64,000 nt of DNA from Amoebophrya sp. A120 (GCA_905178155.1 CAJINV010000002.1:3424515-3488514), one strand, 5' to 3'. Shown: positions 501-63,664, counted from the first letter of the stretch. Notes: a model not told the origin generated them from the sequence alone. Translations and numbers: made by a program.

Positions 501-547
501 TGACAAGTCTGGCACTCTTCCAGACCCAGACATTTTTACATTTGATA

Positions 548-3500
548 TTCCATTCGGGGCGACGACCAAGTCACTGGGTGGGACGAAAACGCAGGTCCCG
601 AGGGTTGGACGGCGCACACTGGCAATACATGGGACAAGATCAAGACGAAGGTCGGCACGAGGAATGTCCGTAAGGAGAAAGTTGTGGCTGTGCACTGCAG
701 CACGAGACCCTGCCTTGTGCACGGCAAGGCCAACGGCCTTGAGGAGGGGGACAAGCAACTCTGCGTAGACAACGAGTGCTGCCTTTGGGGAGATATGTGC
801 ACTAGCCATCTTTTTGGCGCGTGTATTAACCGCGAGCGATACTGTCGCGCTGGCCCATACTTATGAAACAGCTACAGCACCTAGTACATCTCTACCAGAA
901 GAAAAGAATTTGCGTTGCTGGTGTTTTGTTGTCACTCAATGCGCTGCACTGGACACCTGCCACGGTGCTCAACTTCTTGCTCCAAACGAAATGAAAAATG
1001 TATAAAGCGCACGGCTGAGGTTATTAAAGGCAAAAGCTTCAGAACAACGCGTCAACATGCGGAACACAAATCAAGCACGACTGCTTTCGTTTTGTGACCC
1101 TGCCGCAACAGGAAAAAAAACTCTAGCTAAAACAGTAGGGATGTGCCTGATCTGCTTTTCTGCGGGATATAGTCTAGACAATGTCAACCAATGTGGCGGC
1201 TCACCGTGCGGACAGGGAAAGAATTATCCCAGTCACCGAGTGACAGTCGATAGCTTGGACCTCGATACATCCATCAAATATCCATAGAAAAGCGCTAGTG
1301 TTACAGCCACGCGCCGCGACCTGTTGCCGTTGTGACGCCAGGGAAAGAACAAACTTACTCTGCATGAAGATCACAGAGCAGAAAATCACTTGCAGCGTAG
1401 AGACCAAAGAAGGGAAATAAACACGCACGCAAAGAGGGTCGCGTAGTAAAAGTAATATTTTTTCCAGCATGATATAACAACGTTGTCCGTCTTGCTTTTC
1501 GTTGTCGTGCTGCATGTGTAGTTGTAACACTTTTAGGCTTGCATATCAACCGTGTGGATTTCACCACTACCACGACCGCGCCGCCCACAACAAAACCTCC
1601 GACTACGACATCAAAGGCTCCTGGTCCTGCCGGTACAACAACATCAAAAGCTCCTTCCAACGTCGGAGACGGTGTAACCGACGCTCCCGAGGCAACGAGT
1701 GGTCCGGGTGGAACTACCGTGACTACCGCTCCAGCAACCGTGACGACTATCTCTCCCCCGTCCGGTGCTACAACTACGAGTCCCACACCACTACGCATTG
1801 CAAAAGTATCGCACTGCTCGTATAAATGCATTTACAAATTTCCTCAGCATGAAAAATAAGATTTGTAATGTTGATTTGCTTTGGGAACAAGATTTGTAAT
1901 ATGCCAGACTTGCATTTACTTACGAGTGCGATACTTTTGTAGTGGATAACCGCCCGCCAGCTGCAAGAACGCGACGGCCGCGAACACGACGGGGCTGCCG
2001 ACACTCACCACCGACGAACTGAAAGCCATTGTTGACTCGGCTGGATTATGCATTGCAAAAGCATCGTACTAGTATAAGTTGCCTATACAAATTGTCGTAG
2101 CGTGACAGATGGAATTTGTAATGCTGCCTTAGCTGAGCAAGCCCATTTGTCATGCATATCTGCAATTAGTACGAGTATGATACTTTTGCAATTCATATGG
2201 ATCCGGCGACGGCGACATCACCAACGCGGTACTGCCCGAGCTAGTCATATGGTAGTGTCAGGATCCAAATCGACAAAGTTGAAATAACTTGTAATGCATA
2301 AAATGCATGACGCGGAACAAGACGTGTGTTGCAGAGCAGGCAAGCGAGGCTTACTGTATTACAAGCCTGTTATTTGGGGTTAGACAAGCTCGAGCTGCTA
2401 AAGTAGCATGAGAGAATCAGTCCTTGTTTGCCTAAACAGCACGACAAACTGGATTTAGGCACCGCCAGAATTTGATGTCATGCGCCACTTAGAAACTGGG
2501 TTCCAACTGGCATCCATTTTATGCATGGCAAATTATTTCCACTTTGTCGATTTCGAACCTGACAGATCCATAAGTCAACCGCTGTGTGGACCCGGAGACA
2601 GCCAAAGCTGCGGCCGCGAAGATCGAGGTCGTGTTCATATGCATTGCAAAAGTATCGTACTCGTAGTTGTAATTGCAGTGTATGCATGACAAATCTCCTT
2701 TCTAAGGTAAAACTACATGACAAATGTAATTTTTCATGCTGAGTCAATTTGTGATGCAATTCATACTAGAGCTAGTGCGATGCTTTTGCAATGCATAGCT
2801 CATAGCAAAAGGCAACGTGGTGGAGGCCATTGAAGAGGCCGTCGAGCTGGTGGAACAGGAGACCATCGAATCTGTGGAGTCACCACCATCGACCGACTGC
2901 TGCAACTGTTGCTGCGCGATCGTTACCGTGGTGGTGCTCCTGCTCCTCACGGGCGGCGGCCTGTTGGCTTATTTTTTCCTCTTCACCGAGTCCGCAGAAA
3001 AGCAGGGCGCGAACAAGGGATTGGAAGCGGATTCCTATGAGCCACGCTTCTCCTTCGACGTGGTCCAGCAGGCCTTCATTGGTGCCGGTCTGTCGCCGGC
3101 GTACGCGAAAGTTTTGGCGCAGCAAATCGCGAACACGGACTCTGTATCCAGTGCAAAAGTATCGTACTCGTAGTAATTGCAATTATGCATTACAAATCTC
3201 CAGCCCAAGGTAAAACAGCATGACAAATTCCATTTGACAAATTCCATTTGACAAATTCCATTTGTCATGCTGATGCAATTTGTAATGCAATTACTACTGG
3301 TGCGATGCTTTTGGTTTTGCAATTCATACTCTGTGGAAGACGACGATGAGCTGTCGCGGCCGCAAACGGAACATGATGCGCAGATCATGAAGCGGCTCGG
3401 CCTGGATTTCTTCGACACCGAACCTGAGCGGGTCGGGCGGCTGCGGTATTTCCTGGAGGCGGTCGCGCGTGGCGAGCACGAGAAGCACAAGCAGGCCCGG

Positions 3501-6500
3501 CTTCTGTCCGGCGCGGCGGGCGCGAGTGAGTACCAATACGGAGGTGGTTTTGGGGAGCCAGAGGAGGAGCACGTTTTGACGGAGGCGGAGGCACGACTCA
3601 AACTCGAGGCGGCCGGTTTGTCGACGCAAGCGGCCTTTTTCGTTGCGGCACGGCTGCACGCAAAGATGCAGCAAGAATATGATCCGCAGTAAATTTAATA
3701 TTCCCGTACATGATGATCACGACATACAGATCATGCGCTGTCTGCATGACAAAAGTTTCTTTCAATCCTGATCAGCATGACAAGTGGTGACATGCTCACC
3801 AAATTAGGATTAGCGGAATTATTTGTCATGCATTTTGTACTACGTGCTTGTAGTTTACGGGAAATCGAAATTTGTATTGCATAGAGAACACCCGAAAGAC
3901 ACGAAAGCGGCGGCCAAGGAAGTGATAGACGGCATTACGCAGGACGGGGACTGGTTGGCTTTCGCCTCGCCAGACGACATGGCGCAACTGAACACGCTTA
4001 CAGACGGGAACGCCCAATTCTACAACAATTTCCAGAAGGCGAACACCAAGAAGAAGAAGACCTCGCGGCACTCTACTATGGTTCTCGATTTGCACGCTGT
4101 CTCGGTGACCGACCAGGACCCAGCGAACGCGTTGCAATTTGGGCACACCGAAACGGCGGGCGTGGTTACGGGGTTCCAAGTATCAAATGTAAAAATGTCT
4201 GGGTCTGGAAGAATGCAACTTGTCATGCTAAATCTGAAATATGTAAAAATCTGTGTTGCATGATTACCAAAAGTCGTCCAGTTTTGACCAAGTCGGGAGG
4301 GAGTTTCTCATGCAGGATAGGCATGAGAGAGATCGCGCAGAATCTGTCATGCTAGGTCCTGCATTCCAGATCTCATGGGTCATGGAAAATCTACATGACA
4401 AATCGCGCATTCTTCCAGACCCAGACATTTTTGCAATCCATACCAAGCTCTGATGCCCCCCAAAAAGCGGTACGACCTCAAGCTCCATCGAGAAACACAA
4501 GCGAAGAAGTATCCTGAGTACAAACGGTCCCACCTCATAGTCAAGATGGGAAATCTGCTAGACAAATCAACAAGCTTAAGTTGTTACGCATGACAAGTTT
4601 GGCCCTGTGGTGGAATCCTGTTTAGCGCGTTCAGAAGCATCGCAAGTCTAAGCATATCGCGCTGATTGGAGCACTACAAATTCCAAAGCGCGACTAGGAA
4701 ACTCTTCTCATGCATGGGGCTCCGCATGAGAAACATTTTGAGCATGCGGATTTGCATGAAAACTATGGGGCGGGATGTTTTTACACAGGATAAGGAAAAA
4801 TCCCGAATTACCACCGGCACCACGGTCAGCGACACAACTTCCGGAACGACCAGCGAGGGTGTAGTTCCTGGAGACGAAGATCACGCGCGAAAAAAGAAGA
4901 AGAAGAAGGTGAATAAAGCCGGGGCCAACATCAACAACAACATCACCGACCCGGTGCAAGAGCTGGTCGAGCCTGTGCAGCGGACTAGTAAACTTCGGGC
5001 CAGCAGTCGGGTGATTCAAGAGCACGGAGCAGCAGGTGCGCACCATACTACGACTTCAAATTCTGAAGGCATAACTTCCACTTCGGACGCATCTGCTATT
5101 GAGAGGAAAAATCCCCCCTCCCCATATTGAAAAGGCATGTTTCCGAAAATTTGTGTTGCTGATTTGAGGTCACAAATCGCAATTGTTTTGCAAGAAGACA
5201 AGGGCAGAAGCTTCCGCCCCATTATGGAGGCGATTTGTCATGCTGTTGGGCGTAAAGGGGAGCCGCCTGCCATGCTGAACAACTAGACGCATACGCCCCT
5301 CCCTAGCTTGGGGATCTGACCGCAATGCTTTCCTGCAATACAAAGCTGATTTGCGTACCCAAATCCAGCATCAGAAATTTCGTTTTGATATGGGGAGGGG
5401 GGATTTTTCCTTGCAATATCTGCTTCCGACACGTCCGGTGGAGAGGAAGCGCACGGCAAGGGGCCTCAGAAAAAGAAGAAGAAGAAGGTCGTATCATTTG
5501 TAAAAACGTCCCCACACCAGAGTCAAGATGGGGAATCTGCTAGACAAATCACCCAGCTTTGGTCGTTTGGCATGACAAGTTTCTCCTCGTGCTGTAATCC
5601 TGTTTAGGTAGTTCAGCAGCATCACAGATCCAGTATATCATGCGGATTGTAGTATCACAAATTCCAAAGCACGACTAGAAAATGCCTCTCATGGCGCTCC
5701 GCATGACAAACTTTTTTGGCATGCAGATTTGCATGACAACTCTGGTGTGGGGACGTTTTTCCTCAGGATAGGTCGTGGCGGGTACATCGACGAAGCAAGC
5801 GAAGCAGGGCGAAGCGGACGCATCCATGGAAGCGGCCGAGAAGGAGCTGCTGAGCGAAGCGAAGTATGCATTGCAAATATGTCTGGGCTAGCAGGAAGGT
5901 GGAATTTGTGATGTGTGTTGCAGATCATACAAAAATCTGTGTCGCATGACTTGCAAAAGGTGCCCACTTCTGGCCAGCCTGAGAGGGTATTTGTTTCTCA
6001 TGCAGAATAGGCATCACTAAGAGGCTGCAGAACCACTTGTGATGCTAGGCCCTGCATTCCAGATGTGGGGCAGCTTGGAAAAACTGCATGACAAATTTCG
6101 AAATCTTCCAGACCGAGACAAATTTGCACTTGATACGAAGCGCGCACTCGCGGACGTCGGCTTTTCGAAGCAGCAGGCGACACTCTATGCAATACAAATT
6201 TCCCGTACATGTTGTACAAGATGCATCACAAATTTCACCAATTTGGAGTGTAGTAACACTTGGCATGCTGAATTAGGATCAAAGCCCAATTTTGTAATTC
6301 AGAGACTGCATTTGTACGTCGTGTACGGAAAATTTGCTGTGGATACACTCCTTGCGAACCGCATTGCGGGCGTTCGCGCGGCGGAGCTGCGGTCGCAGAA
6401 CATGAAGCTCACCGACGAGGAAAAAGCCATCGCCCAGCGGGGCCTCAACGGCGCGAAAATTTTGGATCTGAGTGACTTAGTGGACGAACTGGTGGCCCAG

Positions 6501-7143
6501 AAAGCCAGCTTCTTCGTGAAAACGCTCGCTCCCACCTCCACCATGCAGTCTATGCGGGTTATCCCGAACAAAAACATCCCCATTCCACAGTTGTCATGCA
6601 AATCCGCAAGCCTAAAATGTCTCTCATGCGCAGCCCCATGGCAGCCATTTTCCAATGCTACCGGGGAGTTTGTGATGCTGGAATCAGGATAAGATAGTCA
6701 ATTTGTCATGCTGATGCACTAGCTAAACAGGATTACACTACGGGCCCAAACTTGTCATGCTCGAAAGCCAAAACTTGGAGACTTGTATTGCGCTTTTGCC
6801 AACTTGACCATGGGGCGGGGACGTTTTTGCTCAGGATACGGGTCAGCGCCCGCCCGGTATCTATGTTGGCGGAACGGTGCATTATGCATTGCAAAAGTAT
6901 CGTACTAGTAGTATGAATTGCATTACAAATTTTCTCCGCATGAGAAATGGAATTTGTAATGCTGATTGACCTTAGGAAAAAGATTTGTAAAAATGCATAA
7001 CTGCAATTACTACGAGTGCGATACTTATTTTGCACAGGATATGCATGACGGGGCAGCCATTGTCGATGCTGGCCAGTCGGATGGAAGGTGGTGGTGACCA
7101 TGCTGGTGGACACAAAAAGCACAAAGTGAAAACCAAGCACTAA
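548..7143 (+). CDS. Large single-pass membrane protein, family paralog 1 (5' end outside the window; 15 complete inverted-repeat introns)
   Basis: Joining exons after removing each TAT...ATA element plus one 5-bp repeat gives a frame that is continuous from about 1170 onward; one junction near 830-1170 is unresolved. Segments: GPEGWT...AVHCSTRPC...DNECC, a Thr/Pro-rich stalk, TM CCAIVTVVVLLLLTGGGLLAYFFLF (~2910-2985), then LMPPKKRY and LTDEEKAIAQRGLNG...LSDLVDELVAQKASFF, shared with the paralogs. Stop TAA 7141-7143. Confidence 0.75.
4181..4442. mobile_element. Introner family B (representative; ~255-330 bp; TIR TAT-N4-TGCAAAAATGTCTGGGTCTGGAAG)
   Basis: 20 copies: 4181-4442 (CCAAG/CCAAG), 5865-6135, 13645-13901, 16798-17080, 18150-18405, 21095-21349, 22379-22706, 23852-24112, 24182-24443, 25477-25738, 27551-27811, 34554-34815, 36682-36945, 37584-37858, 42976-43238, 45235-45503, 48113-48375, 58892-59154, 60960-61223, 62769-63042. 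Partial copies at 499-547 and 32494-32649. Confidence 0.92.
6186..6345. mobile_element. Introner family F (representative; ~155-205 bp; TIR TATGCAATACAAATTTCCCGTACA)
   Basis: Copies 3678-3883, 6186-6345 (CACTC/CACTC), 21933-22098 (CAGGA/CAGGA), 25193-25349 (CCGAC/CCGAC), 26695-26888. Confidence 0.85.
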
Positions 7144-9980
7144 GACCACTCGGTCGTGGCCCCGAGCTGGCCGAAGTGAGGAGGATTGTTAAAGAAAAGG
7201 AAATCGTTGGCATCCTCGAGGGGCGGAGGATTTTCACACCTGCTTTTCACGAATTTGTTTCAAAAAAGTAAATAGTAATTTCAAGTAGTTCAATCACAGT
7301 ACAACCTTTAATCAAAAAATTATGTTATTCATCTTAACACACTGGATTTCAACAAGTTTACTTTACATATATCATTTTACAACTATCGTTTCGCATGCCT
7401 CAAGTTTACATATTTCATTTACACATAGTCTCTTCATCTTAAACAACAATTTTACATATTTCATTCACACAGCACCACAACAATCATTTTTCTTTTTTGC
7501 TTTTCGACCCAAATCCAACACAACCACGCTGTGACGATCGAAAATGGTAGACATACCCTGTCTAAGTAAATGATGGCACTCAACATCTTCCATCAAGCGA
7601 TGAAGCTCGTGCCCCCTGAGCACCGTTTTTCTTTGCCGCAGAGTCAGCACGTACTAAAGGTACTTACTAGTGCCACCGGATGAAAACGGTTTCGGTTGCC
7701 CCCACCGGATCCTTCGTCTGCAGCTTTTTAAGCCTCGAATAGAAAGAACCCAGCAGAGTGTTTTTAGAAATTGCATAAGTCCCCAAAAGAATTAAAGACT
7801 GCAAGAACACGGCATGCTTCTACATTACTTTTTTCTCAGAGGAGGCTACAGGAAGTTGTTGTGCTGACGGCAGAACAAGTAACCGGTGTAGGAGTTGCTG
7901 CAGCAGAAATGACAGAAGGACCTGCCAACATTTTCGCTCTTTAGATTCAGATTTATTGCAAACAAGACGCTATTTTGTACTAGGCATTGTTCGTCACCAC
8001 GATAGACAAGCGCTGTGCGATGGGCAGGATCGCGATGGTCCTATGTTCATTGTTCTGGTACTGGTGAAAAAAGCAACCGCCACCAACATCTCGTCGTGGT
8101 CGTGCGCCTTCTCATACGTAAGAACAAGTAGATGTCGTGGGAAAGCCGACGTAGCCGACGCCTGCTAACAGCGCAAAGATAATGACACGTCCTACCTACT
8201 CTTTTCTTTGAAGAGTTTGTAGCAGCATCCAGGTCCAACTCGTTGCAAATCGGTTTTCAGTTTCTCGTATGCCACTCGGTCGTATGCCACTCGTAGTGCC
8301 ACTCGCAGCACTAAGACCACTCGGTCGTGGCCCCGAGCTGGCCGAAGTGAGGAGGATTGTCAAAGAAAAGGAAATCGTTGGCATCCTCGAGGGGAGGAGG
8401 ATTTTCACACCTGCTTTTCACGAATTTGTTTCAAAAAAGTAAATAGTAATTTCAAGTAGTTCAATCACAGTACAACCTTTAATCAAAAAATTATGTTATT
8501 CATCTTAACACACTGGATTTCAACAAGTTTACNNNNNNNTCATACGTAAGAACAAGTAGATGTCGTGGGAAAGCCGACGTAGCCGACGCCTGCTAACAGC
8601 GCAAAGATAATGACACGTCCTACCTACTCTTTTCTTTGAAGAGTTTGTAGCAGCATCCAGGTCCAACTCGTTGCAAATCGGTTTTCAGTTTCTCGTATGC
8701 CACTCGGTCGTATGCCACTCGTAGTGCCACTCGCAGCACTAAGACCACTCGGTCGTGGCCCCGAGCTGGCCGAAGTGAGGAGGATTGTCAAAGAAAAGGA
8801 AATCGTTGGCATCCTCGAGGGGAGGAGGATTTTCACACCTGCTTTTCACGAATTTGTTTCAAAAAAGTAAATAGTAATTTCAAGTAGTTCAATCACAGTA
8901 CAACCTTTAATCAAAAAATTATGTTATTCATCTTAACACACTGGATTTCAACAAGTTTACATATTTCATTTTACAACTATCGTTTCGCATGGGTCAAGTT
9001 TACATATTTCATTTACACATAGTCTCTTCAACAACAATTTTACATATTTCATTTACCACAACATTCATCCTTTTTTTTGCTTTCTTTCTTTCTTTCTTTC
9101 TTTCTGTTCGTGCCAGGGCTTGGCGTCAAAGGTTCAAGGCCCTAAAGGTTTTTTTGCTTTTGAACCCAAATCCAACACAACCACAAGACGGACGCTGCGA
9201 CGATCGAAGATGGTAGACATACCCTGTCTAAGTAAATGATGGCACTCAACATCTTCCATCAAGCGATGAAGCTCGTGCCCCCTGAGCACCGTTTTTCTTT
9301 GCCGCAGAGTCAGCACGTACTAAAGGTACTTACTAGTGCCACCGGATGAAAACGGTTTCGGTTGCCCCCACCGGATCTTTCGTCTGCAGCTTTTCAAAAC
9401 TCGAATAGAAAGAACCGATCAGAGTGTTTTTAGAAATCGCATAAATTCCCCAAAACAAGAATTAAAGACTGCAAGAACACGGCATGCTTCTACATCACTT
9501 TTTGCTCTTCCGGGGAGGCTACAGGACGTTCTTGTGCAGCTGGCGGCACACAAAGTAAGTAGATGGTGTAGGAGGTGCTGCAGCAGAAATGACAGAGGAA
9601 TCTGCCAACATCTTCGCTCTTGTTTAGATTCAGATTTTCAAATGAGGCTATCATGTAGTACCAAGGCACGCATTCTTGTCCTTCACGAAGGACAGGCGGT
9701 GCGTGATCAAGATGATCGCGATGGGAGTGAAGATTCACTGTTCTGCTACAAGTGAAAAACCAACCGCCAGCACCAACATTTTTCCGTCGTTGTCGTGCGC
9801 CTCGTACCTAGTAAGAAGTAGCCGTGGGAGCAAAGCCGTGGCCGAAGCTTTAGCTTGATGTTACTGTTAGCAGCGCACGCATGACCATGACACGTCGTAC
9901 ATACACTCCGTTGCACGTCAAGTCTCTTTGCAATCGTTCAGGCTGAACCTGATTTCAAATCGCTTTTCACTTTCTCGTGC
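7136..9980. repeat. ~1.2-kb diverged tandem duplication spanning an assembly gap
   Basis: The unit starts AGCACTAAGACCACTCGGTCG at 7136, 8307 and 8735. 8112-8532 is repeated exactly at 8540-8960 across the N-run 8533-8539. Confidence 0.85.
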
Positions 9981-10783: not shown

Positions 10784-13700
10784 ATGTTGAGCCGCGGCGA
10801 CCAGGACGAGATCCTTCTTCAAATGGCGTGGCTGCGAAGTGGTACTAGTAGAAACTCCACGCTGGCTTCCTGCAGGTTTCATCTGAGGGTCTGGCTACTA
10901 CGTATCTTTGTGTGGACCTTGATGATGCGCGACCTCGTCCTGCTCGTCGTCCCGCAAAACGAAGATGTACTTCAGAAGCAGAAGATGTTGTTTTCCTCGC
11001 CAATTTTACCTCCTCCTGTCCGCGCGTTGTCGTTTTCCGTGCGGAAGCACACCAAAACCACGACGACCCAAAAGGAGAAAACGGGCGCGAAAGTGAAGAC
11101 CAAAACCTCCGTAGTGGCAAAGAAAAGAACAGCTAGATCCACTACAGCTCCGCAGCTCTCGTCGCGGCGGGCAGCAGGAAGAGTTGTATCTGGTGTGTCG
11201 AGCACTACGACGAGAACCTCCTCGTTGAAAAGGATTCTGTTCGACGGGCGGAAACAAGAAAAATCCTCGCACAGTAGAGGTCGTTTCGAAGAGGAAAGTG
11301 CATTTATTTCAACACGCCAGCAAAAATTTGTCGGTGGAGAAGAGCAACATCAAGAACTGGAGCAACATCCACGCGCCATTGAAGAAAAATCTGTACTGTC
11401 TGAGCCGCAGGTCGTCCAGAACAATCGGACCACTCTGCTTTCCCTTCATTCCGGGACCTCCGCCTCCGCAGATCGGGACGACCCCGCCGGACTGCTGGAA
11501 GTAGAAGTCGAGAGAAGAACTAGCGGGAAGAACGAGGGGCGGCGGGAAGAACACCAGACTAGCCAGAAAAACGAGGCTTCTGTTGACATGTATGACTACC
11601 ACAACAAGTATCCCTATTGCCCCCGGTGCCAGGTATACAATCTTGTCGGCCTGGTTGATCCCAGCACCGGCGACGGGGCCGGCTGGTATGATACGCATGT
11701 GACGGACACGCGGTGGAGCGCATTTCCTGTGCCGCAACTCGATCAGAAAGCAACGTGGAAAGACTGTGGCGGCAGCACAGGGATCACGTGTGCGGAGACA
11801 GCAGCGCGGAAGACGGTAGACATGTGTGAGGCCGCGGGCTGTGATGCGACTTTCCTAGACCAAGTGAGCTCGGTAGCCGACATCGCGCCGCCAGGCTGGA
11901 CAGGCGCGACGGGTAGCGTAGATTGGAGCGGAATTGCCACGGAGTTGCAAAGCGGCATTGGTGACGGGCACAAGGCGTTCGCGGTCCACTGTAAGCCAAG
12001 TCCGTGCTATGTTACCGTCCAGAGTATCCATTCAAAAAAAAACCGCCCTCTCCCCATATTCAGGAGGAAATTTCCCGTACTGAGGTGGTGGACACAATCG
12101 CTTCGCCTTGTAGTACGGCACTGAGGGCATTTTCGAGGCCACCTGGTCAGGTCGAGACAATTCTAAACCTTCAGAAGGGTTGGTAGTCGATTGTTCCGCC
12201 GCAGAGAGAAACGCACACAGCAGGATGCTTCCTGTCGGTCTTGCTTCTCCAGTACGCATGATCGAGGCACTTCTGCTGCAGACAACAACAAGTAGTCCTC
12301 AGCGAATACAAGCTGCCCTGTGCCTTGGACTTTGCAGAAGTATGTGGAGGGGGGGATTTTTCCGTACGATGGAAGACGTGCAACAACCGGTGTACAACAG
12401 CAACAAAGCTGCTCAGGACAAAAGCTGCGAAAGCCATGCCTGTTGCCGAGCCGGCAAAAAAAAGTCTCATTTTCCCCCCTATTGGTGCCCCAATCAGTCC
12501 CAAGGGGCAGCAGCCCTCGAAAGCCTTTTCTCGTGGAATTTCGAAGTCAGTAAGGCCAATGCACAAGAGTGGAAGCTCTGGTTACAGCAGTACCCGCGTT
12601 CGACGTTTTGCTACTACTGCCGCCCCGGTCCAGAAGATCCCCAGCCCCGTTGGTCGAAGGACGACTACTTTTACGATGAACCTATTCCGGGCAAACCATT
12701 TCCCGATCACCGGGTGGAGGCGTTTGAGTTGAGTGGCATGCTCCGTAAAATTCAGCTCGGAGAAGGCAGTGATTCCGCGGGATCTGTTCCCGGTGGCACG
12801 AATCCGAACGGTGAGACGCCAGGAGGAGGACCCAATGAAAACGGAGCTACGGGTATCATGAGCAAAAACAGTGCCCACACCCCATAGTCAAGTACAAGTT
12901 GGGTGACCTCAGCTAGCAACAGAAAGAGAAATCCAGAAGTTTTGGGAGTCACGCATGACAACTTCCTCATTGTATTCTTGCAGTCTACAGTTTAGAAAAG
13001 GCTGCCGCATAACAAATCCATCTCGATCTCATCATCCTGTTTACAGCATAATACAAGTTCCAAAGCACGACTGAGAATGCCTCTCATGGGGATACGCATT
13101 GCAAATTTTCCTCTGTTTGCAAATCTGCATGACAAGAACTCTGGGGTCGTGGGGACGTTTTTGCCGGGGACAACTGTGACAATTCCGAGCGACACGGCCG
13201 ACGCAGAAGACGACAAGGACATTCCGAAGTGCGCAGATGTGTACGCCAGAACTGCAATTGACGATTTATGGCGTTCTCAAACGTTACATTCTCAACTGTT
13301 GCATGAATTTGTCATGCAAAAGTACCTTAAGCCGGCAGATGATCATGATCGAGCTGCTTCGCATGACAAATTTCGGGAGGGCTAGACAGCATCTAAATCT
13401 GCGCCAAACTTGTCATGCAAAAGGCGCAATCTTCCTCCTTTCACTTTTGCCAGTCTTGCATTACACAGTTGAGAATGTAAACATTTGAGAACTCCATACG
13501 ACTGCACAGCGAAAAACAACTACACTCGACTGGAAAACTTCGTTATCGACCGCTACTACAGTGAGCACAACACAAACCCGGGCGACATTGCGGCTTGCGC
13601 CACCGCGTGCAATTTCGGCATGGACAACTGTGCCGCCTACTCCTTATCAAATGCAAAAATGTCTGGGTCTGGAAGATGACGAGATTTGTCATGCTAGTCT

Positions 13701-33602: not shown

Positions 33603-33811
33603 TATCGCCAGAAAAAACTGTTTCACTGTAAACTTGTAATGCAGAAAATGTATCCGAGAAGTATTTGTCTTGCCACACATGCAAGACAATGGATTTTTAG
33701 CTGTGTTTTCCCTTAGGAATCTCGCATGGCAAATTTTCTCTGGGATGTAGAACAAACTTGTGATGCAAAACTTGCAAAATCCTTACAGTGAAACACTTTT
33801 TTCGTGGGATA
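33603..33811. mobile_element. Introner family I (TIR TATCGC.AGAAAAAACTGTTTCACTGT)
   Basis: Copies 33603-33811 (GTTCC/GTTCC) and 44561-44785 (GAAGA/GAAGA, right end ACA). Confidence 0.85.
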
Positions 33812-51780: not shown

Positions 51781-52230
51781 GCGAATCTATTTGCGCCTCT
51801 GGATGTGAGCCTAAATTTGCCCCCGACACATGGGCTTCCCCATGGTATGGCGCATTGAAAGTTGCCCCCGGTGAATGTTTTTGCGCCTCTGGAGAGGAGC
51901 CTAGATTTGCCCCCGGCGAATGGGTTCCGCGATGGTATGGCGCATTGGAAGTTGGCCCCAGCGAATCTTTTTGCGCCTCTGGACGAGAGCCTAGATTTGC
52001 CCCCGGCGAATGGGTTCCCCGATGGTATGGCGCATCGAAAGTTGGCCCCAGCGAACCTTTTTGTGCCTCTGGACTGGAGCCTAAATTTGCTCCCGACGAA
52101 TGGCTTTCCCGATGCTATGGTGTGTTAAAAGTGCGCCCCGGCGAATCTTTTTGCGCCTCCGGGCGGGAGCCTAAATTTGCCCCCGGCGAATGCGTTTTCC
52201 GATGGTATGGCGCACTGAATGTTGGTTCCG
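51781..52230. repeat. Tandem repeat, five 90-bp units
   Basis: Units start G(C/T)GAA…TTG(C/T)GCCTC at 51781, 51871, 51961, 52051 and 52141. Confidence 0.9.
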
Positions 52231-52856: not shown

Positions 52857-53861
52857 ATGCCCATCCTCGTTTCCGAACCGCTTCTCCAGCCCTGGACGCT
52901 GCGCAAACCCCGCCCGCAGGATACAGTCGAGGAAAGGAGACGCAAAATCGATGCCGATCGGTCCACCTACACCACCCGTTACATGGACAGCAGCAGCAAT
53001 ACCCCCACCGCTGCGAAGTATTCCTGCCGAACGAGAACCAACTTCGGCGTCCCACCCGGCCTAGCGGAGGAGAAATATTTCATCAAGCGAAAGAAATCCT
53101 ACGCCGACCGCCGGTCCTGGGCGGGATTCCCGGGGGACAACGTCTTCAACGGGAAATCTTGTCGGGTCTGGACGGAGCAGGGGGTGAAAGAGTGGGTGAC
53201 GTCCGCGATGCTCAGGCGGGGCTTGATTGAAACAGGAAATCAAAAAACCGAAGAAGAAAATAGTCCAGCCGATTCGGATAGTAAAAATCCAGATTCGATT
53301 GAAAAAGAATTGGAAAAGCAACTTCAAAAACAAAAGTCCGCCCTTTACGACTTGTCCAATTTCCAACCTGTCCCTGGGCAGACACTCGAAAATTGGAAGC
53401 TGCACGACTTCGAGCAAAACATCCCCGGTGGGGGCGAAACCTTACCGAGAGAAATCGCGGAATCACTTTTCAACGAGTTGAAATGCAAGGAGATTGAATA
53501 CCAGGCAAACGCCGCGTTCGACGACAGCATTGTGCGAGGGGTAAACTTCACTCTCAAAGCCTTCCCGAAGTTCAAGATCCGGGAGAAATTCCCCTTACCA
53601 GAAAACAAGCAGAAAGTCCCCGGGCCTGGCCACTACCGCCAGCCGACGACGTTGGGTATTGGGAAGAGCGGAAAAGGGCATCCGCTGTGGAAACAGGACG
53701 GCAGGCCGGTGTTCGGGATCGACGTGAGATTTCCGACATTTGATTCTGCTGGACCTGGGCCGGGGAAGTACCCCGCGATTGCGTTGGCAAAAGATCCGAC
53801 GCTGGAATGGACGCCGAAATGGTCACTGGGGGTGAAAAATAGTTACGGGGGCGCGTTTTGA
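52857..53861 (+). CDS. SHIPPO/ODF3-like PGP-repeat protein (probably flagellar), intronless
   Basis: Uninterrupted ORF from ATG 52857 with VPGPGHY and GPGPGKY motifs typical of sperm-tail PG-rich repeats. Confidence 0.65.
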   Translation: MPILVSEPLLQPWTLRKPRPQDTVEERRRKIDADRSTYTTRYMDSSSNTPTAAKYSCRTRTNFGVPPGLAEEKYFIKRKKSYADRRSWAGFPGDNVFNGKSCRVWTEQGVKEWVTSAMLRRGLIETGNQKTEEENSPADSDSKNPDSIEKELEKQLQKQKSALYDLSNFQPVPGQTLENWKLHDFEQNIPGGGETLPREIAESLFNELKCKEIEYQANAAFDDSIVRGVNFTLKAFPKFKIREKFPLPENKQKVPGPGHYRQPTTLGIGKSGKGHPLWKQDGRPVFGIDVRFPTFDSAGPGPGKYPAIALAKDPTLEWTPKWSLGVKNSYGGAF

Positions 53862-55555: not shown

Positions 55556-55849
55556 AAAGTATTTCGAAAAATAAATAAATGCACAACGATCATTTGGGAA
55601 TAGGAGGTTATCATGTCTGTGTCTGGAGTTGGAAAACCACACAAAATCAGCATCGATCATCCGAATGAATGTCAAGATCTGAAAGTAGCTGATCATGACC
55701 TCCATGACGACCTGTTGTAGATCATTTGGATAGTTCCTGTTCTGAAAAATGATTTGGAAGCTCGCCAAAAGACGCGTTATGTGGTTCTTGACTGGATCGT
55801 ACGAGTTTTGAGTATTTTAGGCACTGAACCACTTCGACAAAGTAAAAAA

Positions 55850-57102
55850 GTTGAGATTGACTTAAGACCCGAGTTGAGATCGAGTCGAAATTTGCATGAT
55901 CTGGGCATTCATTAGCAGCGACGTTTCTAGTGCCCAAAATTTCCAGAAGCGTGTATGTGGATAGGATAGCTGTGCGAGGTGCTTTTGTGCGTCCCCATTG
56001 TTGCTTCTGTCCAAAGCGTGAGGATGAGCTCCCTCGTGCTCGACCGGGTGGGCAGTAAATCTGGATCTTGCATATTCAGGGCGAGCTTTTTTTCGGGTGA
56101 AAAAAGCTGCAATGTTTCCACTCCGTCGAGATCGAATCAAGAGTAAGTTGAGACCGAGTGGACACGGACGGAGTTGAGACCGAGTTGCGATCGCGCTCGC
56201 TGGAATCGAGTTGAGACCGAGTTAAGATCGACTTGACATCGAGTTGAGATCGAGTTGAGATTGAGCCATCCTCGAGTTGAGATTTTCACCCTTTTTTCAC
56301 TGAAAAAAGGAGCAAGCTTTTTTTCAGCTGAAAAATCACGCGGCGCTTTTTTTCAGCTGAAAAAAGGCACACTTGCGTTTTTTTTCAGCTGAAAAAAAGC
56401 TCACTTGCGTTTTTTTTCAGCTGAAAAAGAGCACATTTGGGCTGCGCGCCTCTTTCCAGCTGAAAAAAAGCATTTCCGCGGTTTTTTCCAGCTGAAAAAC
56501 TGCGCCTTGTAATTTTTCAGGTGAAAAAAAGTACAAGGGCGCAACTTTTCAACTGAAAAAAAGCACAAGGGCGCAATTTTTCAGCTGAAAAAAAGCGCAA
56601 GGGGGTAAGTTTTCAGCTGAAAAAAGCGCCGTATGAGGTCACACCTCGTTCGATTTTTCAGTGACAAAAAAGTGAAAATCTCAACTCGGTCTCAACTCGG
56701 TCTCAGCTCGATGTCAACTCGATGTCAACTCGATGCCAACTCGATGTCAACTCGATGCCAACTCGATGCCAGCTTGCTCGATCTCAACTAGATCCCAACT
56801 CGGTTCCAGCTTGCTCCCTCTCCGCTCGATCTTGGTTCAATCTCGATGTGTTGCTCATCATCTGCGCACTTCTCGAGTCTCGTCGAGGCTGGAAATTGAG
56901 CCATGAATTCCCGCTCGAACAAAGCGTCTTGGCGGTTTTTTTCAGCTGAAAAAGTGCGCCTTTCCTTTGCGCGCTTTTCAGCTGCAAAAAGCACAGCTAG
57001 GGTGCTCGTTCTAGCAGGACCAGGAGTAACTCTGAACATTTACACGAACGCCCGCGACACATTTAGCCACAGCGCCAGCACTGTTTGAACTCGATCTCAA
57101 CT
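55850..57102. repeat. Foldback-type inverted-repeat structure with central TTTTCAGCTGAAAA palindrome array
   Basis: CGAGTTGAGAT repeats on the left, ATCTCAACTCG on the right, ~35-bp IRs at ~56272-56307 and ~56654-56688, and about 10 palindromes between 56318 and 56626. Confidence 0.8.
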
Positions 57103-57364
57103 GGGCCAAAAGACGCGTTATGTGGTTCTTGACTGGATCGCACGAGTTTTGAGTATTTTTCTTCCAAACAAACTCGACTAGCGTTTTTTTCCTCGAACAA
57201 TTTCGCCAGATTCTATCTGACACAACTTCTAGACACTGAACGAGAACGTTGCGAAGCTCCTTTCGACCCGACCACGACACTAGGAAGTATTACCTAGCTT
57301 TCTGAACTTTTTCTAGAGGCTCTTGGATATAATTTTCAGCAATTTCATCCCGCCAAGAAACAAA

Positions 57365-59948
57365 ATGAGCGCTCCTGCCGAAGAGCCGAAAGTCCAGGAA
57401 CAGCAGCAGGCCACTGTGGCCCCCGCTGAGGAGAAGAAGGCTGAGGAGCAGAAGGTCGCTGCCGGCACGGAAGAAAAGCCGAAACAAGCCGAAGAAACCA
57501 CCGCTAGTACAACTACCGCGGCTGCCGCTCCCGCTACCGAGGAAAAAGTAGAACAAACCACCACTTCCAACAAGCGCCCCGCCGAAGATAGTGTTGTGGC
57601 TGCCGAAGAGAAAAAGGAAGAGAAAAAGGATGGCGAACAAGAGCAGAAACCTGCGGCCGAGGAACAAACTGCTGCGGCTAGTGCCCCGCCGGCGAAGAAA
57701 CAGAAGTTGAACAACAATAAGTTAAATGTCGCGACTGACCAGGGAATTTTGATCACGGCGGCGAACTCCCACGCGTTGAAGCCGGCCATTCACGATTGCT
57801 TGAACATTTTGAAGCGCGCTTTTCCGGACACTGCTACAGCAGTATGCATTGCAAAAGTATCGTACTCGTATAAATGCATTACAAATTTCCTCAGCATGAG
57901 AAATAAAATTTGTAATGCGGATTTACCGTAACAAAAGGATTTAATGCATGATTGCAATACGAGTGCGATGCTTTTGCACAGGATAAGCAGGTGCCGACGA
58001 CAAGGCTGGAAAAAGATTCGAACTCTGCAACGATCACAAGCTGCCGTTCGGTATTGATGAGAATGTTCCTTTTGCATTTGCTGTTGGTTGTTTTCGCATG
58101 ACAGTCACAGTAATTCTTCCACTTCTTCCTCCTGAACCTGATGTCAACATCGCATGCCAATCTGTTCATGCTCACTTGCACTACTTACAAAACCGCACAA
58201 CAAATTCTGCTAGGTATCGGCTTCGTGAAGTGCAATCAGTCTCCTACCGCTCCGTTAACCGCGTCCGCCTGCTGCAGCCAGATGTTCGAGAAATTCCAAA
58301 ACAAGCAGGAAAACTCCCACCATATTTTCCGGCTACTGCCGTGCGACTTCCTCTGTAAGCCGGACATTGAGGAGTTCAAAAAGCTCGCGGAGAAACACAT
58401 CAAACCCTTGTTCCCGAAAACGGAAAAAGCGGAAGACAAAAAGTTGACGTGGGCGCTGAACTTCAAAACCCGGGCGGTGGTATGGAATGTGAAATAAATT
58501 TTTCGGAGATTGTTTGCAATTTTTACGCACAGGACGGGGCGCTTTTTCGATTTAATAAGTGCCTGCATGCGAAAGACCATTCGAGGACAATTATGCTGCG
58601 GCTTTTCCAAGGATGTCGAACGGCCAGCTTTTGCAGCCTTCACGCAAACTAGCAAGTTTTGGCTCAGACAATCAAAAAAATCGCAGCACCATGGTGATGC
58701 ATGATTTTTCTGATTGAAAATAACATGCGCTTGCTCTATGTGACGCAACAATGGTGCAATTTTTTTCGATTATGAATCTATTTGACCCGCCGTCCTAGTA
58801 CCTCAAATTGTCTCCGAACAATTTCGACTTTCCCACTCCATACTTGAAGAAGATCAACAAGGACCTGATCCTGCAAGTGATCGACCAGTGGTATCAAATG
58901 CAAAAATGTCTGGGTCTGGGAGATTCCGAGATTTGTCATGCAGTTTTTCCAAGCTCCCCCACGTCTGGAATGCAGGGCCTAGCATCACAGGTTCTGCAGC
59001 TCCTTGGTGATGCGTATTCTGCATGAGAAATGCTCTCTCAGCATGGCCAGAAGTGGGCACCTTTTGCACGTTATGCATCACAGATCTTTGTAGGATCCGA
59101 AACACATATCACAAGTTCGGATCCTTCCAGACCCAGACATTTTTGCGTTTGATAAATGGACCGATGGGTACAAGGTTTCCCTGGACAACCCCGAAGTGTG
59201 CATCCAGATCGAGGTGAACCCGGTTTTCATCGGGTTGGCTTTGATTGACAACCACCAGTGGGGGAAGTTTATCAAGTACAACGTGCAATCGGTGTTGAAT
59301 CCGGCGCAGGCCCTATGGGGAGGAAAAAGTTTGTTACAGTCACTATCTATCTTGGCGGTTCTGCATTACAAATTTTTTGCATCATCACAGCTTTTGCTTG
59401 TATTGCTGGAACACCAAGGGAAATCCCGTAGGAAGTTTGGCTGTGGGGCATTTTTATGCATGACAGTCAGGCATTTTTTGTATTGCAACAATGCACATGA
59501 ATGATCGTGGTGAGCTTTTTTCTTTTGATAGGCCGCGAAGGAAGCGGAAAAGCACCGGAGCCGGGAGAAGGCGAACCAGGCGAAAAAAGCGGAGAAGGCT
59601 GCTGTATGAACTGCAAAAGTATCGCACTCTCATAAATGCATTACGCATTCTCTCAGCATGAGAAATAAAATTTGTAATGCGGATTTACGTTGAGAAAAAA
59701 ATTCGTAATGCATGATTGCAATAGGAGTGCGATACTTTTGCACAGGATATGCCGCTGCGAGTAGTACCACGGGAGTCGAGAAGAAGGCGGAGGAGAAGAA
59801 GGAGGAAGCTGCGGCTGCTTGTGCCACTGCAGAGACGAAGACCGAAGCTCCTGCGCCCGCCGTTGCCGAGAAGGAAGCCGCTAAGGCCGTTGTTGAGGGA
59901 GAACAAGCGAAGACCGCCACGGAGAAGGCGGTGGAGGCTGGAGCGTAA
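57365..59948 (+). CDS. THUMPD1: THUMP-domain protein (Tan1/THUMPD1-like tRNA modification adaptor)
   Basis: GILIT near the N-terminus, RLLPCDFLCK, WALNFKTR, YKVSLDNPEVCIQIEV, KYNVQ. Introners at 57843, 58481, 58892, 59314 and 59605; GT-AG intron 58051-58213. Confidence 0.8.
57843..57985. mobile_element. Introner family A (representative; ~145-205 bp; TIR TAT-N4-TGCAAAAGTATCGTAC)
   Basis: 19 copies: 1792-1948, 2047-2197, 2638-2797, 3145-3328, 6883-7041, 15272-15476, 16569-16731, 17210-17355, 34294-34443, 37373-37523, 37953-38122, 41849-42010, 43572-43717, 44236-44389, 49382-49539, 57843-57985 (flanked by AGCAG/AGCAG), 59605-59749, 60761-60910, 63084-63567 (enlarged). Confidence 0.92.
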
Positions 59949-60696
59949 AGGCAGAATCGTCGACATGAGAAGGCTATATGTAGTGTTGAATGTGGAAAAA
60001 TAAAGGGAAACATGAAACTTCCGTTTGCGAATGACACCACTACACTTACGAAACCTCCGCGTTTGTCTCTTCGCGACTCGATGACATCGCTTCTCTGGTG
60101 TGAGGAGTATGAAGACGAGCTCCTCTATCCAGGTCACAGATCAGAACCATCACTAACTTTGCTTTTGAACAGCTCAACCTCGAATAAAAGTTAATATCAC
60201 GCAAACAAGTTCTCGAAAAATTCCATCGCCAAGTAACAGGGAAAGCATTCTAGGTTCTAGAAATGATGACTTTTCTTTGATGTGATCAAGCCGCTGGGTG
60301 GTGGTCACCTCTATCTGTGTTCGAGTTGTATGCAGTACTTGCTTCTATCCCCCGAGTGTAGTCTCAACTTCTACAGCCTCTGTTTGTTACAATCGGTATG
60401 GTTTTTTATTTCGTGTGCTGCCAAAGTTGTGGAGAGAAACGCGGCTCTGGAAGTTTCACAGGAGCTTTTTTTAGCGCTACTAAGTCAGAAGACAGAAACG
60501 AAGCGAGAGCCGATATTCATTGCGCAAAGAAAACGACAGGAACAGAAAAAGATTCTCCAAAGGAAAATATCCTTTCCCGTGTCGCAGACGACAGGAGTGC
60601 TGCAAAATTAATTGCAATTCAAATCGACCTTTGGTACCTACTATAGTTGATTGGAAATTATAAAGTCGCGATAGAACAGAAAAAATCACGAACAAC

Positions 60697-63664
60697 ATGC
60701 CCTCCGTCCTGATTGTCTGTACTTCCGCGGCCGAGTTCGGGCCGGAAAAGTCCCCGACGGTATGAACTGCAAAAGTATCTTAATCGTAGGAGAAGAAATA
60801 CAAATTAGCTCAGGAAGAGAAATGGAATTTCTCATGCTGATTTAGGTTGAAAAAGAAATCTGTCTTGCATGACTGCGATTAGTACGAGTGCGATACTTTT
60901 GCACAGTATAGACGGGCGTCTGGATTGAAGAACTCGCTTCTCCGTATTACGCTTTCTTCTATCAAATGCAAATATGTCTCGGTCTGGAAGAGTCCGAACT
61001 TGTGATGCTGCATTTGGATTCCAAAAAAATTTGTATTGCATGAGCAGCAAAGGGAATGCAATTTTTGCTACGCGGAGAGGACATTTGTCATGCGGAATAG
61101 GCATCAAGAAGCCCTGATAATATATGTGATGCTAGGGCATGCATCACAGACATCATGGCTAATGCAAAACGTGCATGACAAACTCCCCAAATCTTCCAGA
61201 CCCAGACATAGTTGCAATGCATATCTTAGACGCTGGGTTCAATGTGACCGTCGCGAGTCTGGCGGGAGGCGAAATCCCCGTCGACGCCGCTTCCCGCAGT
61301 GAGGGGTTTTACACGGATGCGTATCAAAGTGAAAAAAGCCTCCACCCCATAGCGGAAACGGAAGATGCGCGAATTTGTGATGCTGTATTTGAGTACACAA
61401 ATCGACTTGTATTGCTAGAAGGCCAAGAGACGAAGCTGCGGCCTAAATTGCAGGTAATCTGTCATGCTGTTTCCCGCTTCCAGTTGCCTCCTGTCATCCT
61501 GGAGCTGCAAGGCTGTCCCACGCTAGACAGCACTACAGTCCGCACCTTTTGCCTTCTAGCATCACAAAGCTGACTTGTGACCACAAATCTGCATCACAGA
61601 TTTCCGTTTTGATATGGGGAGGGGGCATTTTTCATTGTAATAATGCGGCGAAGAAATTTGATGCGGACGAAACGGCGACGGGTGTGCTCAAGACTAGCAA
61701 GAACTTGGCGGACGTGGTAATATTGTATGTTTGAAGTAGAGCTTGCGATGCAGTTCTGCATGAGAAGTAGAGATATGCGAATGATGCATGTAGCTTGTAC
61801 CCATGACAAATAAAGCACAGCAGTTTCTCATGTATGTAACGCATGCCAAAATAAAATTTCTATCAGGCCGGCGACGAATTTGATGCCGTGTACCTCCCCG
61901 GCGGGCATGGTTGCTGCACGGATTTTGTTAGGCATTGCAAAAGCTGTGTTGCACGAGAATGCCAACGAAGAAATTGCGATTTGTTTGAAGTAGATGTAGC
62001 CCTGTCACTATGAACACGACCCGAAGAATAAAGATCTGTCATGCAGTATTCCAAGATAGAGTTTGCGCGTTTAAACTTGCGACGCTTTTGCTTTTGCTCA
62101 CCATAGCTCTTGCGCACGACGGTTTGAAGGCTTGCGTCGAGAAAATGTACGCTTCGGGAAAGGTGGTTTCTGCTTGCTGCCACGGCCCGGTCGGACTCGC
62201 GCAGTGCTGCAAGCCAGACGGTACTTTTTTCGTTTCTCGCGGAGGCAGCTCTTCTTGCAAGGAATGATACTAAGCTTGTCTCCAATCTAAAACAAAAACT
62301 AGCATTAGTCCGTGCAGTTTTTCATTACATGTTTTTGCGCGAATCCACCCCAACATATACCCCCCTTCAGGTACCCCCTTGGTGAAGGATTTGAAAGTGT
62401 GCGCCTTCATATCCTGAGGAAAAACGTACCCACACCAGAGTTGTAGTGCAGATTTGCCAAGACAGGAAGACTTGTAATGCGCATCCCCATAAGAGCCATT
62501 TCCAATCGTGTTTTGGAATTTGTGATGCTGTGAACAGGATGAGCCGATGAATCTGTGATGCGGCTGCTCTTGCTAACCTGCACTACACTGCAGAGTGCAA
62601 CTTCTCATGCTTGACTCACAAAACTCCTAGGTTTGTCTTGCAAAATCCCCATCCTGACTCTGGTGTGGGTACGTTTTTACTCAGGATACTTCAAGGACAC
62701 CGAGGAAGCCGCTGTTGGGCACACGGAGAAGGTTGCGTGGCTGCTGGAGGCCAAGATGAAAGAGCTCGTATCAAAAGCAAATATGTCTGGGTCGGGAAGG
62801 TTGCAACTTGTGATGCTGTTTTTCGATTCTAGAAAAATCTGTAGTATTGCATGACCAGCAAGAGGAGTCCAGTTCGTGCTGCGCAAAAAGGGCGTTTCTC
62901 ATGCGGGATAGGCATCAGAGAGCTATCTAAAAATCTGTAATGCTAGGTCATGCATTCGCATTGCAGGCATCATGTGTAATGCAATATGTGCGTGACAATC
63001 TAAATCTTCCAGATCCAGACCCAGACATATTTGCATTTGATAGCTCGGGTGCAAGTACGAATCCGCTGACGATTGGAACTCCGTATCCTGTGCAAAAGTA
63101 TCGTACTCGTATTGTAATCATGCATTACAAATCTTTTTCTTAAGGTTAAGGTAAATTCGCAAAAAAAAAATAGTAGCTGGAGATTTCAACTTGCATCGTT
63201 ATAGAAGCTTGTGTCTGTTCTGTGTTGCCTTAAAAGTTTGCATCTGCGCCATGCATCTATTGAAGATATGTTTTTTTGTTGCAGATAGACGACCTTGACT
63301 ATGGGGCGTGGGCACGAATTCTGGGAGAGTGAAGATTTGCGTTGCAGATAGATGACCGTGGGGACGCTCTCGGAGATCCGGGATCCGGAGCCGGGTGGGC
63401 GAGCGACGCGGACAGGCCAACCAGGCCAACTTCTCATCCACCCGGCCGGGTGGATGGGAAGTTGGCCTGCAACTACTATTTTTTTTTTGTTACCCCGCTC
63501 TTACAAATTTTATTTCTCATGCTGAGAAAATTGCATTTATACGAATACGATACTTTTGCAGTTCATACTCCGCGGCGGTGTGCGATGGGCAGTTAATCAC
63601 GGGGCAAAACCCGCAGTCCTCCGAGGCGGTGGCCAAGTTGATCGTCGAGGCATTGAAGAAGTAA
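60697..63664 (+). CDS. DJ-1/PfpI family (Hsp31-like class I glutamine amidotransferase-fold) protein
   Basis: Spliced product reads TGVWIEELASPYY, GGEIPVD, DAVYLPGGHG, SACCHGP, LITGQNPQSS. Seven introners plus GT-AG introns 61717-61866 and 62221-62370. Confidence 0.9.
62410..62688. mobile_element. Introner family C (representative; ~280-320 bp; TIR TATCCTGAG..AAAAACGTCCCCAC.CCAGAG)
   Basis: 9 copies: 4510-4792, 5492-5770, 6560-6838, 12854-13172, 26959-27254, 33275-33553, 42657-42935, 43764-44042, 62410-62688 (CTTCA/CTTCA). Confidence 0.9.
63160..63489. mobile_element. Small TIR element nested in a family-A introner
   Basis: Ends CAAAAAAAAAATAGTAG(C/T)TG are inverted at both sides; internal 48-bp near-perfect palindrome at 63422-63469. 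Confidence 0.65.

Follow-up and report, generated by a model that had tools for sequence, protein, structure and literature searches.

How can coding sequence absorb a dense load of transposon-like insertions, and in what form do these leave the message? We take up this question in a stretch of 64,000 nucleotides (nt) from Amoebophrya sp. A120 (GCA_905178155.1 CAJINV010000002.1:3424515-3488514; "the window" below means this whole stretch), where the coding exons of nine plus-strand genes hold all 72 inverted-repeat elements that we catalogued and the 20,331 bases outside hold none. We demonstrate the anatomy of these elements, their exonic position, their occurrence in both orientations, and their removal together with exactly 5 further nt (element+5). 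They are almost certainly the introners of Farhat et al. (2021), removed as element+5. The overall reading that we find moderately probable is that they are introners resembling miniature inverted-repeat transposable elements (MITEs), cut at a fixed register of 1 nt before and 4 nt after the element (the 1/4 register) by a relaxed spliceosome that is guided by the terminal hairpin.

Inverted-repeat elements in coding exons

Scanned for TAT...ATA ends that are complementary at 14 or more of the 20 terminal bases and stand between exact 5-base-pair (bp) direct repeats, the window yields 37 pairs; the 63 other start triplets gave 0–2 pairs each under the same scan, and dinucleotide shuffles gave none (20 of 20). 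The full catalogue, built by loosening the repeat, searching by family, and permitting one altered end, comprises 72 elements of 143–484 nt that span 1279–63567 at a density of about 3 per kilobase (kb) of coding sequence. A 73rd copy with TAT...ATA ends, heavily decayed and with its repeat lost (862–1169), was recovered through protein alignment; 313 nt are removed there, equal to 308+5, and an alternative reading of its ends is possible. The target repeat is exact at 5 bp in 44 of 72 elements and carries a single mismatch in 19, and lengths of 4 and 6–9 bp are exact in none of the 72. TAT opens 67 elements, a single end is altered in nine (TAC four times, TAG once, ATG and ACA twice each), and A stands at element positions 11, 12, and 13 in 62, 63, and 66 of the 72. 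Terminal pairs 9–13 are predicted to fold at a mean probability of 0.81–0.84 (70 elements), and the outer three pairs at 0.57–0.64.

The 59 core elements make up 12 clusters, 67 of the 72 elements carry stops in all three frames, and depth in sequencing run X1 is 1e4–1e5 in element bins versus about 50 in exon bins. A search against Rfam gave no matches. What we find are terminal inverted repeats (TIRs), a target-site duplication (TSD) of fixed length, small size, no coding content, and many copies, that is, the features of a MITE. An initial annotation of this DNA had described about 73 MITE-like elements with a 5-bp TSD, in at least 10 families, all built on one grammar of 5-bp repeat, TAT, TIR, and ATA, and our census agrees with it on each of these points; the "unrelated interiors" that it gave them do not hold up, as a subterminal motif (described below) is common to 64 of the 72.

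The exons of the window are 100% identical to the annotated A120 proteins P0001 and P0004 (topoisomerase III), P0125 (DJ-1) is matched exon by exon, and P0130 matches the first gene of the window. Because these are A120 proteins, the element system is one already published (PMC7789003). Farhat et al. gave the inverted repeats of A120 introners as TAT followed by seven variable positions and three or more A, reported direct repeats of 3–5 bp (with one 5-bp example), non-canonical borders, and RNA sequencing support, placed the repeats 1–5 nt from the splice sites, treated the position of these sites with respect to the hairpin as variable and that of the border as unknown, and found the same repeat layout in 15% of A120 canonical introns (PMC7789003). 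Here we find the same host, the same TAT+7+A-run inverted repeat, a direct repeat within 3–5 bp, and repeated, spliced, non-GT-AG elements, so the report that the initial annotation had cited does concern this system. Other Amoebophrya strains use GT-AG (PMC12005148). While the elements themselves have thus been described, the fixed register, independence of orientation, polar conservation of the ends, and shared motif are additions: the accessible text of Farhat et al. contains no fixed 1/4 register, orientation test, transcription-polar ends, or shared internal motif (PMC7789003), and in the open literature, with subscription journals largely outside it, we found no paper stating a fixed introner cut register. 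These element families are also present in a metagenome assembly (loci L001–L160), with identity of up to 95.7% over at least 200 nt; judged by these sequences, the system also exists in a relative outside the cultured strain.

Removal of element+5

Direct transcript evidence comes from two contigs (5467 and 6567 nt) of run X3, a run guessed to be RNA; they cover genes 2 and 3, and the evidence is confined to elements within 12001–28000. In six of six gaps, two of them single junctions and four of them sums, the length missing from these contigs equals the summed elements plus exactly 5.0 nt each, over 22 elements. Comparison with four annotated proteins gives element+5 at 43 of 43 junctions (12, 9, 7, and 15, respectively), and topoisomerase III and DJ-1 are intact after this removal, and the conserved parts of the former align collinearly with four homologs through the junctions. 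The initial annotation had held that deleting element+5 restores the frame, and had proposed checking RNA junctions for exactly that length; the X3 contigs and the proteins agree with it, and all host frames are open, eight of nine by a stop scan and that of DJ-1 through P0125. The raw RNA run X8, with 12 of 3,295,382 reads placed and none of these covering exons, is uninformative either way. We also considered splicing of element+2 at G-TAT...ATA-G, which is frame-neutral, and rejected it: the RNA sums and the proteins give +5 even at elements with both G (16569, 41849, 60761, and 62769).

Removal very likely takes place at the RNA level. Programmed excision from DNA, yielding a somatic or stage-specific genome as with the internal eliminated sequences of ciliates, would sit well with palindromic TA ends and with both orientations, each of which suits a DNA enzyme, and with the status of X3 as guessed RNA. 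Nonetheless, genome-like X1 contigs pass through the elements unjoined at an even depth of about 44; no element+5 joint occurs among the 15 joints listed of 1947, although contigs drop rare forms; the cut and the decay of the ends are polar to transcription rather than to the element; and X3 records are bounded near gene ends. We regard DNA excision as very improbable. An artefactual origin, in which the joined forms arise when reverse transcriptase switches template or a polymerase slips between the repeats across the hairpin, is scarcely credible. Such artefacts are typically met where a hairpin is combined with a short direct repeat, but removal is exact even where three or four of the five repeat positions mismatch (12025 and 61929), and 67 of the 72 elements are stop-laden, yet topoisomerase III and DJ-1 are intact once they are removed.

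The register of the cut

Exact repeats conceal the position of the cut and imperfect repeats reveal it, so that five of the 12 RNA piece ends listed are uninformative. The seven informative ends permit 5' overhangs of 1; 1 or 2; 0 or 1; 0–2; 0–3; 1 or 2; and 1 nt, and only an overhang of 1 nt is common to all. At the element with a decayed repeat and an ATG end (12025–12371), the cut is pinned at 12024 and 12375, 1 nt before and 4 nt after, and the intron reads GT...AG there. The overhang is 1 or 2 nt at the element with an ACA end (12854–13172) and at a singleton (22836–23125), and 0 or 1 nt at an element with repeat mismatches at positions 3–4 (14363–14672), which reads TT...TT at the 1/4 register. 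At 26695–26888, where the repeat is decayed, the donor is pinned at 26694 and the intron starts with CT; only the donor side is seen in the listed pieces.

Protein sequence bounds the 5' overhang at three further elements. Two with a repeat mismatch at position 5 (1279–1545 and 60960–61223) require at least 1 nt, placing the donor 1 nt before TAT at the latest, and a decayed element with a TAG start (61929–62105), also removed as +5, allows at most 1 nt, so that its donor cannot precede the start by more than 1 nt. The bounds at 60960 and 61929 had been predicted in writing beforehand, and both came out as predicted. None of the 43 protein junctions excludes an overhang of 1 nt. Together, these observations strongly indicate an intron of the form N-TAT...ATA-NNNN, cut 1 nt upstream of TAT and 4 nt downstream of ATA. 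At 12025 and 61929 the register holds despite three to four repeat mismatches, and at 26695 it does so for the donor; slippage driven by the repeat is thereby ruled out. The GT...AG pair that neighbors 61929 is bypassed. In the junctions that it inspected, the initial annotation had seen no register that would give GT...AG. This is so for 70 of the 72 elements; such a register is possible at 5492 and 12025, and at the working register GT...AG appears in one of 72, namely 12025.

A single 1/4 register for all elements is probable. The alternative, which is what Farhat et al. drew, is that element+5 is removed from RNA with a register that floats inside the direct repeat. It gains from the 44 exact repeats, in which the cut is invisible, and from published A120 annotations, in which end dinucleotides are mixed within families (among 22 of 58 A120 rows; PMC12130899). 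However, the seven informative RNA ends and the protein bounds meet in one register, and end decay is position-specific, so we consider a floating register quite unlikely. The fixed register also has a simple consequence: its offsets of 1 and 4 nt add up to the 5-bp duplication, so that the message is recovered intact whatever the target sequence.

Orientation and polar decay of the ends

Within the window, the families lie in both orientations (family 1, 12:6; family 2, 9:9; family 3, 4:5), as does family 1 in the metagenome relative (52:42), and family-1 copies in both orientations occur within the RNA-skipped gaps. Either orientation is therefore removed. Since the families lie both ways in plus-strand genes and are skipped in both, the interior has no strand-specific role, and the 1/4 asymmetry follows transcription.

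For a larger sample of ends, we used at least 160 metagenome loci (411 kb) of the relative that carries the same families. From 345 pairs, 325 had one intact end and a length below 900 nt, four being dropped for doubtful ends; seven of the 325 had no open frame, and 262 were retained with a direction margin above 5, which with the 72 window elements gives an oriented set of 334. Under the 1/4 register, U occupies +2 in 334 of 334 and a purine occupies +3 in 333 of 334. T+2 (U+2) never changes, compared with eight changes at its mirror position; A+3 changes once versus six at its mirror, and A-7 once versus nine. This polarity was noted first in the window itself, and the independent set reproduced it in 14 of 16 confident cases (Fisher p=0.013), or 17 of 20 when weak calls are included. 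Decay by G-U wobble as the sole cause accounts for pair 1 and fails for pairs 2 and 3, which decay to mismatches and not to wobbles (wobbles to mismatches 0:6 for pair 2, versus 16:9 in control pairs 11–14, p=0.007). The pattern points to the identity of A+3 and A-7 being read, and not only their pairing. Composition at the +1 base and over the last four bases is that of the background; we saw no selection of target sites for GT or AG among the 334 elements, and no exon-base preference at the cut.

Candidate removal machinery

What would carry out such a removal? A120 has U2, U4, U5, U6, Prp8, U2AF, and Slu7, with U1 and snRNP27 undetected (PMC7789003), and in yeasts loss of SNRNP27K accompanies donors with U at +4 (PMC10581693). 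We place the odds that the spliceosome is the catalyst at about even. The inverted repeats would pair and draw the ends together in place of U1; U6, U5, and Prp8 would read U+2 and A+3; A-7, with which the closing ATA begins, would be the branch point or the anchor of a ruler; and G+1 and AG would both be dispensable. A precedent is offered by the tunicate Fritillaria borealis, whose introns, like those here, are mostly non-GT/AG and have been attributed to a modified major spliceosome (bioRxiv 10.1101/2025.08.15.670264), although preferred ends are kept in that species (AG-AC and AG-AT; PMC11282704) and the +1 and last four bases are free here.

The relaxed spliceosome is favored because the kept bases match canonical donors (which begin GTA in eight of eight unambiguous cases in the window), because element 12025 is canonical at the very same register, because 15% of canonical introns share the repeat layout (PMC7789003), and because the catalytic small nuclear RNAs and Prp8 are present with U1 and snRNP27 undetected, a combination for which the +4 U and tunicate cases give precedents. 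The initial annotation had called for a dedicated, precise excision system unlike ordinary splicing. Its precision stands, removal being exactly element+5; its separateness from ordinary splicing is not established, since every element starts N-T-A as canonical donors do and 12025 reads GT...AG, which makes a relaxed spliceosome at least equally indicated. A sharper version, in which the A120 major spliceosome has dropped G+1 and AG and reads only N-U-A and an A seven bases from the 3' end, we put forward tentatively, at somewhat less than an even chance.

Several points weigh against a fixed register served by a relaxed spliceosome. X3, whose records start and stop near gene ends, is only guessed to be RNA, and the annotated proteins come from RNA-based gene models that may share data with X3, so the two are not independent. 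Left-most placement of the joint was inferred from the five exact cases, no non-canonical junction is pinned on both sides by itself, and elements may differ from one another by a base in their register. For the metagenome loci, gene direction was taken from a codon model that is correct for 70 of the 72 window elements, and the end changes are few (25). As a class, the elements lack the GT (or GC)...AG ends of U2-type introns, and the 334 show no drift toward GT or AG: G+1 is found in 114 (34%, compared with 30% G in the flanks), AG in 32 (about 26 expected), and GT...AG in 12 (about 8 expected). A stands at -7 in only two of eight canonical introns, which lends the branch idea no support there. 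A spliceosome indifferent to both G+1 and AG also conflicts with the chemistry of splicing.

A different candidate is a separate, Euglena-like machine, be it a structure-guided endonuclease with a ligase or a second spliceosome, that would measure from the base of the hairpin with the same 1/4 geometry. The nonconventional introns of Euglena, like the elements here, are probably derived from MITEs, pair at their termini, lack GT-AG, and combine fixed unequal spacers from an inverted motif with a restored duplication (PMC12501133, PMC11282704). Free G+1 and AG and the irrelevance of orientation are what such a machine would give, Euglena likewise combines a short spacer on the 5' side with a longer one on the 3' side of an inverted motif (N3-CDG...CHG-N5-6; PMC12501133), and U1 is undetected in A120 (PMC7789003). 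The signatures themselves differ, however: Euglena has a CAG...CTG motif with spacers of 3 and 5–6, a preferred purine after the cut, and reported circles (PMC12501133), whereas the ends here are N1-TAT...ATA-N4, with spacers of 1 and 4 and no exon-base preference. U+2 and A+3 are moreover the canonical donor bases, pairs 2 and 3 decay against a logic of pairing, element 12025 is GT...AG at the same register, and the repeat layout in 15% of A120 canonical introns (PMC7789003) contrasts with the rarity of hybrids in Euglena (PMC12501133). On balance, we judge a Euglena-like machine unlikely, if a serious contender.

Spread of the elements and their shared motif

The combination of TIRs, a fixed 5-bp duplication, a free choice of target, and both orientations points to a DNA transposase acting in trans, and non-autonomous DNA transposition is the likely route by which the elements spread. 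We rejected reverse splicing as that route, both orientations being common and a 5-bp duplication being present.

The sequence GCATGACA or its complement is found in 52 of the 72 elements, and a broader TTGTCATGC-type 9-nt subterminal motif in 64, at 11.1 per kb versus 0.32 outside (the TTGTCATGC pattern was chosen after viewing enriched 8-mers). The motif is concentrated at about 40 and 70 nt from either end, its arrangement being inverted, and we infer that it is a putative transposase binding site. Several nested inserts are joined at it. Such inserts lie at 1–506 and in the element at 63084–63567 of the window, and in the metagenome at L008:3001–4255, L062:3862–4492, L029:632–1465, L033:3314–3770, and L061:571–1051. 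A single insert family has an identical joining base in the window, L008, and L062, and 12–20 bp duplications accompany it in the latter two; three others carry, as retroelements without long terminal repeats do, a tail of (CAT)n, (ATG)n, or (ATGA)n. The nested inserts may target introners as a safe haven. A further nested element, a TA-flanked MITE with different inverted repeats, lies inside a truncated family-1 copy at about 32660–33095; its ends are, we presume, Tc1/mariner-like, and the composite seems to be removed as part of a GT-AG intron that starts at 32487.

An autonomous partner was not found in the 64-kb window or the 411 kb of metagenome loci, and the family-1 end pattern had no match in viral contigs. 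Among the metagenome loci, 11 pairs longer than 400 nt were listed; the five long pairs, one 1255-nt copy, and three window stretches that we inspected are short elements with nested inserts or two neighbors merged, and none of the inspected long copies holds a stop-free stretch above 139 amino acids (aa).

The initial annotation knew of no mobilizer. None was found here, although a candidate class is in print: family 38 among the A120 families of Gozashti et al. (2025), which like the present elements are TIR DNA elements, is filed as Ginger and shares the 5-bp TSD and TA/TA termini (PMC12130899). Family 38 differs in being about 808 bp long with open reading frames that resemble Copia/Gypsy, no such copy occurring in the window or the loci, and splice-site calls in that dataset are mixed within families (PMC12130899). 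Ginger2/TDD elements likewise have TIRs and 5-bp TSDs (TDD-4 and TDD-5), and an integrase-type cut-and-paste enzyme is a feature of theirs (PMC2836005). Their ends are TGTNR (PMC2836005) as opposed to TAT here, with no TGT start among the 334 oriented elements; given these termini the elements fall outside the Ginger/TDD family, while agreeing with its 4–5 bp TSD. The reading that we favor has an integrase-type (Ginger/TDD-like) transposase acting in trans, with a 5-bp staggered cut at TA ends; it would probably bind the shared subterminal motif.

Host genes and other features of the window

The nine host genes lie on the plus strand. The window opens within a family-1 element, whose right portion (1–547, plus strand) contains the nested non-coding insert joined at the shared motif and whose left end lies beyond the window; a minus-strand frame of 173 aa (339–860) has no Pfam match. 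Gene 1 (3' part, 549–7143; protein P0130) has 15 elements, all 15 junctions being element+5 against P0130 and the frame open: 1279–1545, 1792–1948, 2047–2197, 2248–2572, 2638–2797, 3145–3328, 3678–3883, 4181–4442, 4510–4792, 5097–5418, 5492–5770, 5865–6135, 6186–6345, 6560–6838, and 6883–7041. A 428-bp unit is repeated around a 7-N gap at 7141–9900, possibly an assembly join.

Gene 2 (10784–18572; P0001, 1547 aa) is covered by an RNA-like X3 contig and has 12 elements, with element+5 at 12 of 12 junctions: 12025–12371, 12854–13172, 13267–13498, 13645–13901, 13950–14260, 14363–14672, 15272–15476, 16279–16534, 16569–16731, 16798–17080, 17210–17355, and 18150–18405. Gene 3 (19857–30653) gives an open frame of 2446 aa after removal of 14 elements, and its X3 contig is without the summed element+5 over 11 of them; the elements are 21095–21349, 21528–21746, 21933–22098, 22379–22706, 22836–23125, 23852–24112, 24182–24443, 24512–24729, 24850–25066, 25193–25349, 25477–25738, 26695–26888, 26959–27254, and 27551–27811. 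For gene 4 (31823–35566; elements 33275–33553, 33603–33811, 34294–34443, and 34554–34815), with the GT-AG intron from 32487 that contains the truncated family-1 copy and its nested MITE, and for gene 5 (36527–38245, 173 aa; elements 36682–36945, 36979–37289, 37373–37523, 37584–37858, and 37953–38122), the evidence is an open frame only. Genes 1–4 (549–35566) and a fragment at 39790–40254 form a tandem family whose large protein products combine a hydrophobic segment with a repeated domain that belongs to no Pfam family; 25 cluster representatives match it, genes 3 and 4 not being among the matches listed. A solitary family-2 5' end (39798–39826, plus strand) lies upstream of the gene-family fragment.

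The topoisomerase III gene (41297–46769; P0004, PF01131 and PF01751) has nine elements, with element+5 at nine of nine junctions and collinearity with four homologs: 41849–42010, 42657–42935, 42976–43238, 43572–43717, 43764–44042, 44236–44389, 44561–44785, 44908–45148, and 45235–45503. Its canonical introns are 45857–45965 and 46422–46578. The public P0004 model runs through the first of these and loses a conserved C-terminus that is present in the A25 homolog; once 45857–45965 is removed, a frame of more than 1040 aa is open.

A SNARE-like gene (48057–50064; elements 48113–48375 and 49382–49539, canonical introns 48789–48942 and 49608–49779) has an open frame and a weak PF05739 match below the cut-off, and a further gene (57365–59949; elements 57843–57985, 58892–59154, 59314–59530, and 59605–59749, canonical introns 58051–58213 and about 58480–58798) has an open frame only. 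The DJ-1/PfpI gene (60697–63664; P0125, PF01965) has seven elements, with element+5 at all seven junctions: 60761–60910, 60960–61223, 61322–61642, 61929–62105, 62410–62688, 62769–63042, and 63084–63567. The last belongs to family 2 and owes its added length to a nested insert, by which one copy of the shared motif is interrupted, and the canonical introns are 61717–61866 and 62221–62370. Between genes lie a 90-bp tandem array (51775–52225) and a large palindrome of 11-bp and 32-bp units (56126–57200). A 334-aa gene (52857–53861) has no element and no Pfam match.

Six of the nine GT-AG introns (46422, 48789, 49608, 58051, 61717, and 62221) measure 150–172 nt, near the shortest element class (143–170 nt), and three contain the shared motif; some of these introns may be old elements.

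Implications

The fixed 1/4 register and the three polarised end bases make the mechanism of removal directly testable, and if the register is indeed fixed, the annotation of A120 can be corrected accordingly. Should the spliceosome perform the removal, A120 would represent an extreme loss of splice-site specificity; should it not, the elements would be a second, independent origin of the Euglena-type solution, with spacers that sum to the target duplication of a transposon. Either mechanism explains how this genome tolerates about three insertions per kb of coding sequence. If the spliceosome does read only N-U-A and A-7, then any TA-ended transposon with a 5-bp duplication would become an intron that leaves no scar, wherever in an exon and whichever way round it had inserted.

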